In this document: positions 7,404 to 22,365 of the stretch, piece by piece | How positions within the stretch are numbered: position 1 is the stretch's first letter | Layout of the letters: every line of letters begins with the position of its first letter | From: Escherichia coli | Lineage (GTDB): Bacteria; Pseudomonadota; Gammaproteobacteria; Enterobacterales; Enterobacteriaceae | DNA: 64,000 nucleotides | Assembly: GCF_024700885.2 (NCBI RefSeq) | Contig: NZ_CP117016.1 | Reading direction: 5' to 3' (one strand) | The notes under the pieces: model-generated | The model's input: the letters and a program-made list of their open reading frames with translations, nothing else | Databases searched by the model: none | What the model was told of the DNA's origin: nothing | Translations under genes and position numbers: made by a program

Positions 7404-8237
7404 TTAACGCATATTCAGTTTATTGGCGTGGTAGGCAATATGCTCGCCAATAAAACTGGAGACAAAATAATAGCTGTGGTCGTAACCCTCGTGATAACGG
7501 ATTAACGTCTTGATATTCATCGCCTGGCAGATCTTTTCAAGATTTGGAGTCCGCAGCTGTTCTGCGTAAAAATCATCACTCAACCCCTGATCAACCATGA
7601 TTTCCGCAACGCGTTGACCTTGTGAAATAAGACTCACCGGGTCGTAATCCAACCAGGCTTCTTTATTTTCACCAAGATATGCGGTAAAGGCTTGCTGTCC
7701 CCACGGTACTTGCGATGGGGAGACAATGGGCGAAAACGCTGAGACGCTGACATATTCATCTGGGTTACGTAACGCCAGCACCAGCGCGCCCAGCCCGCCC
7801 ATAGAATGACCTGAGATAGACTTTCTGGCCGTTGCCGGAAAATGTTGCATCACTAAATCCGGCAGCTCGTTGCGGATATAGTCATACATTTTGTAATGTT
7901 CATTCCACGGCGCTTGCGTTGCGTTCAGGTAAAACCCGGCACCTTGCCCGAGATCGTAACGGTCAGCATCTGCGACATGACTGCCTCGCGGACTGGTGTC
8001 TGGCGCAACAACAATAATGTTGTGCTCCGCCGCGTAACGCTGCATCCCCGATTTAGTAATGAAATTCTGCTCGTTGCAAGTCAGCCCTGAAAGCCAGTAC
8101 AACACCGGCAATTTTTCACTTGCGGCTTTTGGTGGGAGATAGACGCCGACATTCATTTCACATTTCAGTGATTGGGAATAATGCCGATACACATTTTGCC
8201 AGCCGCCAAAGCTGGCATGTTTTTCAATGAGTTCCAT
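7404..8237 (-). CDS. frmB: S-formylglutathione hydrolase (esterase D family)
   Basis: 277-aa ORF with GHSMGG serine-hydrolase motif; follows frmA. Confidence 0.9.
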   Translation of the reverse strand: MELIEKHASFGGWQNVYRHYSQSLKCEMNVGVYLPPKAASEKLPVLYWLSGLTCNEQNFITKSGMQRYAAEHNIIVVAPDTSPRGSHVADADRYDLGQGAGFYLNATQAPWNEHYKMYDYIRNELPDLVMQHFPATARKSISGHSMGGLGALVLALRNPDEYVSVSAFSPIVSPSQVPWGQQAFTAYLGENKEAWLDYDPVSLISQGQRVAEIMVDQGLSDDFYAEQLRTPNLEKICQAMNIKTLIRYHEGYDHSYYFVSSFIGEHIAYHANKLNMR

Positions 8238-8329: not shown

Positions 8330-9469
<1,140 letters not shown>

Positions 9470-9473
9470 TCAG

Positions 9474-9749
9474 CTATTTAAGATAGGCACGAACCAGTTC
9501 AATAGTGTCGTCAACGGATTGGCTGACTTCGCGGCTGTAGCAGTCATTTCGGTCAAACGTTTCCCGGATATGGCTTTCAAGCACTTCTGCCATCAGCCCG
9601 TTAGCCGCGCCCCGAACGGCAGCGATCTGTTGGAGTATGGCACGGCATTCGGCATCACCCTCCAGCGACCGTTCCAGAGCATCAATCTGCCCCCGAATAC
9701 GACGAACTCGAGTAAGGACCTTTTTCTTCTCTTCCGGAGTACTGGGCAT
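9474..9749 (-). CDS. frmR: formaldehyde-responsive repressor (CsoR/RcnR family)
   Basis: ORF 9474..9770 trimmed to [10 protein letters not shown] (91 aa); first gene of frmRAB. Confidence 0.85.
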
Positions 9750-9775
9750 TTCGCACCTCATCATCTGCACGCAAT

Positions 9776-9832
9776 ATACTATAGGGGGGTATGCTATATG
9801 TCAATGCATACCCCCCTATAGTATATAACACT
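9776..9832 (-). promoter_or_regulatory. frmRAB promoter/operator: near-perfect palindrome with G/C tracts
   Basis: atactatagggggg...cccccctatagtat inverted repeat immediately upstream of frmR; the G/C-tract-between-AT-arms architecture is typical of CsoR/RcnR-family operators. Confidence 0.6.
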
Positions 9833-9933
9833 GGAGAATAAAATTTATCCGGTGAATGTAGTCGGATAACAAAAAGTAAAGAGGGGCCTAATCGACAGGG
9901 AAGGCCGCCCCGGATAGCGGGCGGCAGAAGGAA

Positions 9934-10707
9934 TCAGAATTTCCAGGTCAGATGGGCTGCAAGTTGCAGACCGTTATAATCATCGGTTGGGGTGTCGTAC
10001 CACACTTTACCTGCCGTCAGCCCGAGATTAAGTTGCTCAGTCAGCGGTTGAATACGTTGCAAACTGACGCTCTTCATGCTGCCGTAGCGTGTTTCTGGCG
10101 TCCAGTCATAGGTGTAAGCACCTGTTCCGCGGCTTAGCCATAGTTGCGTATAACCAGTGCCGCGCGGGTCATTCAGACGCACGGAAATCATATTGCTGTA
10201 ACTACCACCTGCATCGCTGGAGTCATAATGGGTATAGCGGTAGCTGGAGATCACCGGGCCAGTATAGAGTGATACGCCGCCTTGCCAGGCATCGACTTCG
10301 ACATCATCGTAATATTTAGTGTAGCGATAACCGGTCGTGAAAAGCGTTTTTGGCAACAGTGCCAGGTTAATATCCTGACGAAAATCCTGGCGGGCAAAGA
10401 CCGGCGTATTATCCGCAAAGGCAATACCCGTTCGGGTTGTCAGCCAGTTATTCCATTTATACCAGACCGCACCCTGACCGCGAGTGGCATTGAAATGTTC
10501 AGTTTCATAATCACGACGCCCCTGGGAAAGATTAAAAAGCAGCGTTGCGTTTTCAACTTTCGCCACCAGTTCAGCATACGCTAAATTACGGTTGCCATGA
10601 TCACCAGAATAATCGGTAAAATCGTAGCCCGCGGTAATGGAAGTTAACCCGGCATAAGCGGGCAATGTGCTAAAAATTGCTGCCGCTAATAACGTCCGTT
10701 TTATCAT
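9934..10707 (-). CDS. yaiO: outer-membrane beta-barrel protein
   Basis: 257-aa ORF with N-terminal signal peptide (MIKRTLLAAAIFSTLPAYA), alternating aromatic beta-strand pattern and C-terminal ...WKF. Confidence 0.8.
   Translation of the reverse strand: MIKRTLLAAAIFSTLPAYAGLTSITAGYDFTDYSGDHGNRNLAYAELVAKVENATLLFNLSQGRRDYETEHFNATRGQGAVWYKWNNWLTTRTGIAFADNTPVFARQDFRQDINLALLPKTLFTTGYRYTKYYDDVEVDAWQGGVSLYTGPVISSYRYTHYDSSDAGGSYSNMISVRLNDPRGTGYTQLWLSRGTGAYTYDWTPETRYGSMKSVSLQRIQPLTEQLNLGLTAGKVWYDTPTDDYNGLQLAAHLTWKF

Positions 10708-21682: not shown

Positions 21683-22365
<683 letters not shown>

Follow-up and report, generated by a model that had tools for sequence, protein, structure and literature searches.

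The closest described system to the sequence considered here is the frmRAB promoter (Pfrm) of Escherichia coli. Denby 2016 (PMC5146963) found a "large inverted repeat" centred at -29 in Pfrm and read it as tandem type I FrmR sites. Each site consists of ATAC and GTAT around a G/C-rich 9-mer. EcFrmR binds the MG1655 Pfrm fragment with a Kd of ~220 nM by BLItz, against 3.6 uM (3,600 nM) for the non-target PydhY (PMC5146963). Dissociation of FrmR from Pfrm depends on formaldehyde and is sped up by it, and formaldehyde also relieves the inhibition of frmRAB in vitro transcription by FrmR (PMC5146963). The same paper discusses two stoichiometries, namely two tetramers or one tetramer bridging both sites, and it cites Herring & Blattner 2004 for the finding that repression of Pfrm is not kept in a frmR deletion.

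Other work is relevant too. Salmonella FrmR binds a C6 site with T/A repeats as two tetramers, and binding is abolished when one flank of the site is mutated (Osman 2015/2016; PMC4528141, PMC5016687). Osman 2016 also aligned the E. coli and Salmonella frm promoters and marked their G/C tracts and T/A inverted repeats. The RcnR operator has been given as TACT-G6-N-AGTA, with two type I sites (Iwig & Chivers 2009, as cited in PMC5146963). A 2024 study (PMC11127321) put two ATACN9GTAT sites into the constitutive promoter J23100, one upstream of the -35 and one in the promoter spacer, and obtained FrmR-dependent repression. When the frmR promoter itself was truncated so that both sites were kept and the upstream DNA was removed, repression was lost (PMC11127321). 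This suggests that flanking upstream DNA, or the dose of FrmR, also matters. The loss hints at a contribution of flanking DNA like that in the DNA wrapping proposed for RcnR.

The window, meaning the whole 64,000-nt (64 kb) stretch of DNA that was analysed, is E. coli chromosome with the gene order mhpT-yaiL-frmB-frmA-frmR-yaiO. A 601-nt query centred on the dyad described below is 100% identical in many strains, and the annotation in those strains reads mhpT, yaiL, fghA (frmB), frmA, frmR, yaiO, acetyltransferase and yaiP. The frmR product belongs to PF02583 (3.3e-23), scores 189 bits against the NCBIfam FrmR equivalog NF008464 (cutoff 133), and matches PDB 5lbm, 'Transcriptional repressor FrmR', over its full length (E 4e-55). 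Its accession, WP_001141271.1, is that of the K-12 protein, and it is identical to the FrmR used experimentally. The sensing residues Pro2, Cys35 and His60 can be read directly from the translation. A solved-structure search with FrmR returned no protein-DNA complex among its matches. It must be noted that the minus strand has two more hairpins between the yaiO stop codon and the dyad. One lies at 9904-9925 (GCCGCCC...GGGCGGC) and the other at 9845-9869 (TTATCCG, 11 nt, CGGATAA, then ATTTTATT). Neither passes the terminator scan, but they might be structure of the yaiO 3' end.

The dyad has two 21-nt arms, ATATACTATAGGGGGGTATGC at 9774-9794 and GCATACCCCCCTATAGTATAT at 9806-9826, which a repeat search found to be 100% complementary. 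They are separated by an 11-nt spacer, TATATGTCAAT, at 9795-9805, so the whole element reads ATATACTATAGGGGGGTATGC-TATATGTCAAT-GCATACCCCCCTATAGTATAT. On the plus strand a G6 tract lies at 9784-9789 and a C6 tract at 9811-9816. The dyad is centred on 9800 and occupies the interval 25-77 nt 5' of the frmR start codon. No other perfect inverted repeat in the 64 kb window is as long when loops of up to 20 nt are scanned. The longest arms in 30 Markov-1 random sequences of the same size were 9-11 nt. The arm length of the dyad is far beyond chance. The runner-up in the same palindrome scan has 13-nt arms around a 4-nt loop (21695-21724). The pattern ATACN9GTAT has just two matches in the window, one in each arm of the dyad.

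A first-pass annotation of this DNA had already pointed to a long palindrome upstream of frmR, and that palindrome is real. It was called near-perfect, which undersells it, since the arms are fully complementary in this strain. It was placed at 9776-9832. The strings quoted there do correspond to 9776-9824, but the end at 9832 is about 6 nt too far. The palindrome does lie between frmR and yaiO as was claimed. However, yaiO is not divergent from frmR. Both genes are on the minus strand, so the dyad separates the 3' end of yaiO from the 5' end of frmR and there is no divergent region. Table 1 gives the coordinates.

Table 1. Features of the frmR upstream region and of the neighbouring genes, in window coordinates.
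Feature	Position	Strand	Remarks
Whole dyad, perfect	9774-9826	.	21-nt arms and 11-nt non-palindromic spacer
Proximal FrmR site, ATAC-N9-GTAT	9776-9792	minus	sense strand ATACCCCCCTATAGTAT; C6 = 9784-9789
Distal FrmR site, ATAC-N9-GTAT	9808-9824	minus	sense strand ATACTATAGGGGGGTAT; G6 = 9811-9816
-35 hexamer TTGACA, consensus	9799-9804	minus	within the dyad spacer
-10 region TATAGTAT	9776-9783	minus	within the proximal FrmR site
Transcription start, predicted	9769-9771	minus	from the promoter scan and Denby's dyad centre at -29
frmR	9474-9749	minus	91 aa; opens the frmRAB operon; repressor binding the dyad
frmA, S-(hydroxymethyl)glutathione dehydrogenase	8330-9439	minus	regulated gene
frmB (fghA), S-formylglutathione hydrolase	7404-8237	minus	regulated gene
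yaiO	9934-10707	minus	co-directional with frmR

Each arm of the dyad contains a complete FrmR site, and a promoter is folded into the same DNA. The sense strand of frmR reads ...GTGTT-AT-[ATAC TATAGGGGG GTAT]-GC-A-TTGACA-TATA-GC-[ATAC CCCCCTATA GTAT]-AT-TGCGTGCAGATGATGAGGTGCGAA-ATG. The proximal site overlaps the -10 and most of the promoter spacer. The distal site is a mirror copy of the proximal one and sits directly 5' of the -35, in the position that an alpha-CTD/UP element would take. The centres of the two sites, at 9784 and 9816, are 32 bp apart, which is about three helical turns. The -10 can be read in two ways. TATAGT (9783-9778) would leave a 15-nt spacer, and TAGTAT (9781-9776) one of 17 nt. 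Our promoter scan reports TTGACA-17-TAGTAT with a 10/12 match. Genomic SELEX with the RpoD holoenzyme selected this intergenic DNA, and the frmRAB promoter was given there as TTGACA-15-TATAGT (Shimada 2014, PMC3946193). Since Denby's dyad is centred at -29, the predicted +1 falls near 9771. For a second, divergent promoter on the plus strand the result was negative, as the scan finds the minus-strand promoter only, both in the window and in K-12.

In the definition quoted by Denby 2016 (PMC5146963), a type I operator has an uninterrupted G/C tract of 3-8 bp. The G6 and C6 tracts are both of this kind, both are flanked by ATAC...GTAT, and the dyad overlaps the promoter of frmRAB, an operon that includes the gene for the cognate repressor. 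We are highly confident that the dyad serves as the operator for the formaldehyde-responsive FrmR and is fused to the frmRAB sigma-70 promoter. The first-pass annotation had also taken it for the FrmR operator, since a G/C tract between AT-rich arms matches the operators of CsoR/RcnR-family repressors. This identification agrees with the published Pfrm and with the comparative data given below. What has to be amended is the number, because there are two mirror-oriented operators here and not one. The annotation had named a failure of FrmR to bind this DNA in vitro as the result that would speak against it, and published promoter-fragment data show that FrmR binds (PMC5146963). A literature search with partial coverage found no base-resolution footprint or arm-by-arm mutagenesis of the E. 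coli dyad, so binding at the exact E. coli bases rests on fragment binding, transplant and conservation. The identity and function of the dyad are already known, and we claim nothing new in its identity.

Conservation was examined in 80 frmR loci, obtained by scanning one genome per species with FrmR and ranging from Escherichia to Brucella, Lysobacter and Pseudorhodoferax. A frmA homologue lies directly 3' of frmR on the same strand in 76 of the 80. In 65 of the 80, the 130 nt upstream of frmR contain an exact ATAC-N9-GTAT, and the sites are co-conserved with orthologous repressor genes. This pattern has 83 matches in the 10.4 kb upstream of frmR versus 3 in the remaining 243 kb of the loci, an enrichment of about 650-fold. 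The comparison shows the FrmR site travelling with frmR-frmA through the Alpha-, Beta- and Gammaproteobacteria. Most of the other loci have one-off variants, such as N8 spacing or an ATAC-N9-CTAT that overlaps the start codon.

In the frmR loci of many genera the proximal site keeps its place, -43 to -51 relative to the ATG. The consensus of the non-redundant proximal sites is cATACTCCcctatAGTATAtag, with the C-rich half toward the -35 and the TATAGT half toward the -10. Its ATAC/GTAT flanks do not vary among 60 non-redundant proximal sites. Another site, 32-35 bp farther upstream, is found in Escherichia, the plasmid-type loci, Providencia, Edwardsiella, Aeromonas, Serratia, Pantoea, Erwinia and Deefgea. 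TTGAC lies between the paired sites in all of these two-site lineages but Deefgea, which has TTGCA. The site is single in Tatumella, the Pasteurellaceae and most alpha- and beta-proteobacterial loci, where TTGACA often directly abuts it. We conclude from this distribution that the long dyad is a lineage-specific elaboration of a widespread single operator, which arose by duplication in mirror orientation. The two sites in Erwinia are direct copies, matching at 7/9 positions in direct orientation versus 2/9 when inverted.

Two unusual groups came up in the same survey. A frmR homologue 91% identical to that of E. coli, with no frmA-like gene downstream, is present in a Citrobacter MAG, Klebsiella grimontii and Maribrevibacterium. 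These three homologues are nearly identical across unrelated genera, and their upstream site is N10-spaced, ATAC-TACATGGGAG-GTAT. The homologue in these genera is probably a mobile cassette with some other regulatory target. In Lysobacter and other Lysobacteraceae/Xanthomonadaceae (L035, L036, L037, L054, L057 and L079) a variant, ATACTCCCCCCCACTATG, ends in the apparent frmR start. Either the true start is elsewhere or the mRNA is leaderless with an operator on its start.

The dyad is present as a single copy in 5,415 of 5,426 complete E. coli genomes. An 81-nt query covering it is 100% identical in 2,681 complete genomes, roughly half. Relative to K-12 this strain has two SNPs, at 9793 and 9770. 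Position 9793 is G on the plus strand here and T in K-12, and with the G the perfect arms reach 21 nt instead of 19. The other SNP is at or beside the predicted transcription start. The change at 9793 is of the kind produced by quasi-palindrome template switching. Upstream of about 9845 the context varies. The window and K-12 have yaiO there, O157:H7 has fbpC, and strain 300709 has an ISEc20 transposase. This strain-variable junction is the DNA at 9827-9933, and conservation starts about 15-25 nt upstream of the dyad (TTATTCTCCAnTGTT). A C10 homopolymer of K-12 is GCCCCTC in the window, near 9888-9894.

One can imagine that the palindrome exists for its own fold. It might act as an RNA hairpin, serving as a terminator or attenuator of yaiO read-through, or as a DNA cruciform, and recognition by a protein would then be secondary. 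The hairpin is very stable as DNA, with a single-stranded fold of -21.5 kcal/mol compared to -7.3 +/- 2.0 in dinucleotide shuffles (z = -7.1), and it dominates the RNA fold of the yaiO-frmR spacer. The arms are also perfectly mirrored in both Escherichia (GGGGGG) and the plasmid type (GTGGAG) despite their different tracts. However, a Rho-independent terminator also needs a T/U run directly after its G+C-rich hairpin. There is no T/U run after either arm (TGCGTGCAG follows on the minus strand and AACACTGG on the plus strand), and a terminator scan of 9400-10100 is without a match. Transcription of frmR is predicted to begin downstream of the dyad, which would leave the dyad out of the mRNA. 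A long hairpin is also missing from the many frmR loci that have a single site, and in Erwinia the paired sites are direct rather than inverted. Rfam 15 returns only eukaryotic miRNA-precursor models at 20-27 bits, far under their thresholds of 73-139, which is generic hairpin noise. The mirrored arms of Escherichia and the plasmid type looked like compensatory change. To test this, we joined the two 21-nt arms of 14 two-site sequences and compared them with 500 column-preserving shuffles. Arm-to-arm pairing is 83.7% versus 80.5% in the shuffles. The covariation score is 0.137 versus 0.117 and is reached in 60 of the 500 shuffles, and 6 pairs are changed on both sides versus 4.9, a count reached in 169 of the 500. 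Since pairing and covariation are not above the shuffles, we reject selection for a hairpin or cruciform as the cause of the symmetry, and a primary role for the fold is most unlikely. Two mirrored copies of one asymmetric protein-binding consensus would suffice to explain the symmetry of the palindrome.

The dyad could also have nothing to do with FrmR. It might be the target of another regulator, or a REP, MITE or IS-end repeat that landed beside frmR by chance. The strain-variable context (yaiO, fbpC or ISEc20) does make the region look like a recombination junction, but that junction is upstream of the dyad and the dyad is always beside frmR. The 81-nt query hits 5,417 places in 5,416 records, about one copy per genome, and ATACN9GTAT is absent from the rest of the 64 kb window. 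The motif accompanies frmR-frmA in three classes of Proteobacteria and on 487 plasmids. We reject a dispersed repeat or the end of a mobile element, as the median number of places per genome is one across 5,415 E. coli genomes. We consider the chance of such an accidental neighbour to be next to nil. A different possibility is that the inverted repeat is a substrate for recombination or template switching, so that inversion of the spacer flips the -35, turns frmRAB off and turns an outward promoter on, much like phase variation. There is one genome with exactly this arrangement. In E. coli FJ_Ec_21 (NZ_CP143627.1) the 15 nt between the 19-nt arms are exactly inverted relative to K-12, from GCATTGACATATAGA to TCTATATGTCAATGC (window-equivalent 9793-9807; about 330-345 in locus L083). 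TTGACA-17-TAGTAT is then on the opposite strand, toward yaiO, and just a 9/12 match still faces frmR. However, no second complete E. coli genome carries the full-length inverted form. The next match is 94.3% and in the ordinary orientation, and no invertase gene lies near the dyad. A role as a switch of this kind is highly improbable. The FJ_Ec_21 inversion has the look of a sporadic mutation mediated by the hairpin, though it may be an artefact of the assembly or consensus. A stronger version would turn the frmRAB promoter itself into a small invertible element, in which template switching flips the 11-15-nt spacer, shuts frmRAB off and creates a mirror promoter facing yaiO, giving reversible off cells at low frequency. 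That is very unlikely too. If it were true, the same template switching would also perfect the palindrome and could explain the polymorphism between the 19-nt arms of K-12 and the 21-nt arms of the window.

We return to the reading of the dyad as a double FrmR operator. Since the dyad encloses the -35 and overlaps the -10, we infer that FrmR acts at frmRAB by promoter occlusion and not at a later step. When formaldehyde is absent, FrmR tetramers would occupy both sites. One tetramer would lie over the -10 and the promoter spacer, and the other over the DNA just 5' of the -35. RNA polymerase would be kept out and frmRAB repressed, frmR itself included. Formaldehyde would then join Pro2 to Cys35 across FrmR subunits and reshape the DNA-binding face. 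The cross-linked FrmR would leave the DNA, and a strong promoter would become active. The exact stoichiometry at the E. coli dyad that this scheme implies is a putative one, and the position of the frmRAB transcription start is likewise a predicted one.

Formaldehyde detoxification in E. coli is controlled at this dyad. The frmRAB promoter is widely used as a formaldehyde biosensor in synthetic methylotrophy. Deregulation of frmRAB leads to formaldehyde and methenamine resistance and is of clinical relevance (PMC13029678). Our additions to what is known are modest. They are a cross-phylum footprint that sets the consensus cATACTCCcctatAGTATAtag, the two-site dyad around the -35 in Enterobacterales, Aeromonas, Deefgea and plasmids, and a rare natural inversion of the spacer that flips the promoter. 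A perfectly symmetric natural two-site operator would be a good substrate for solving structures of CsoR/RcnR-family tetramers on DNA.

It remains to set this dyad beside the other systems. The E. coli RcnR operator, between rcnR and rcnA, resembles it in having a G6 tract with short AT-rich inverted repeats on its flanks and two sites per promoter. Like FrmR, RcnR is an autoregulated PF02583 repressor. However, the RcnR sites are 19 bp apart versus 32 bp in the frm dyad, and the flank sequence and tract length differ. RcnR responds to Ni/Co and FrmR to formaldehyde. The RcnR region is also truly divergent, whereas frmR and yaiO are in tandem. Salmonella Typhimurium frmRA too has a C6 tract with T/A-rich inverted-repeat flanks 5' of frmR-frmA, and formaldehyde weakens binding there. 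But Salmonella FrmR is only 52% identical to E. coli FrmR, the promoter sequence is distinct, and a single C6 site that takes two tetramers stands against the long two-site dyad of E. coli.

The plasmid-borne frmR-frmA, as in Edwardsiella anguillarum (NZ_CP006665.1), has a similar dyad, with two mirrored ATAC-N9-GTAT sites and TTGAC between them. Its palindrome (locus L009, ~1420-1475) is perfect, with 18-nt arms, TATACTATAGTGGAGTAT, and a 17-nt spacer that contains the TTGAC. It differs in having the tract GTGGAG in place of G6, sites 34 bp apart centre to centre, and a FrmR that is about 90% identical. This plasmid type occurs on 487 PLSDB plasmids, mostly conjugative, in Klebsiella, Enterobacter, Citrobacter, Escherichia and Salmonella. 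The Pfrm of Denby is the same locus and the same element as the dyad in the window, with its inverted repeat at about -29, two type I sites and a 9-bp tract. The differences are small. The centre-to-centre spacing of the sites is 32 bp as counted here versus 31 in Denby 2016, and the arms of this strain are 21 nt and perfect, whereas those of K-12 are 19 nt with one inner mismatch.
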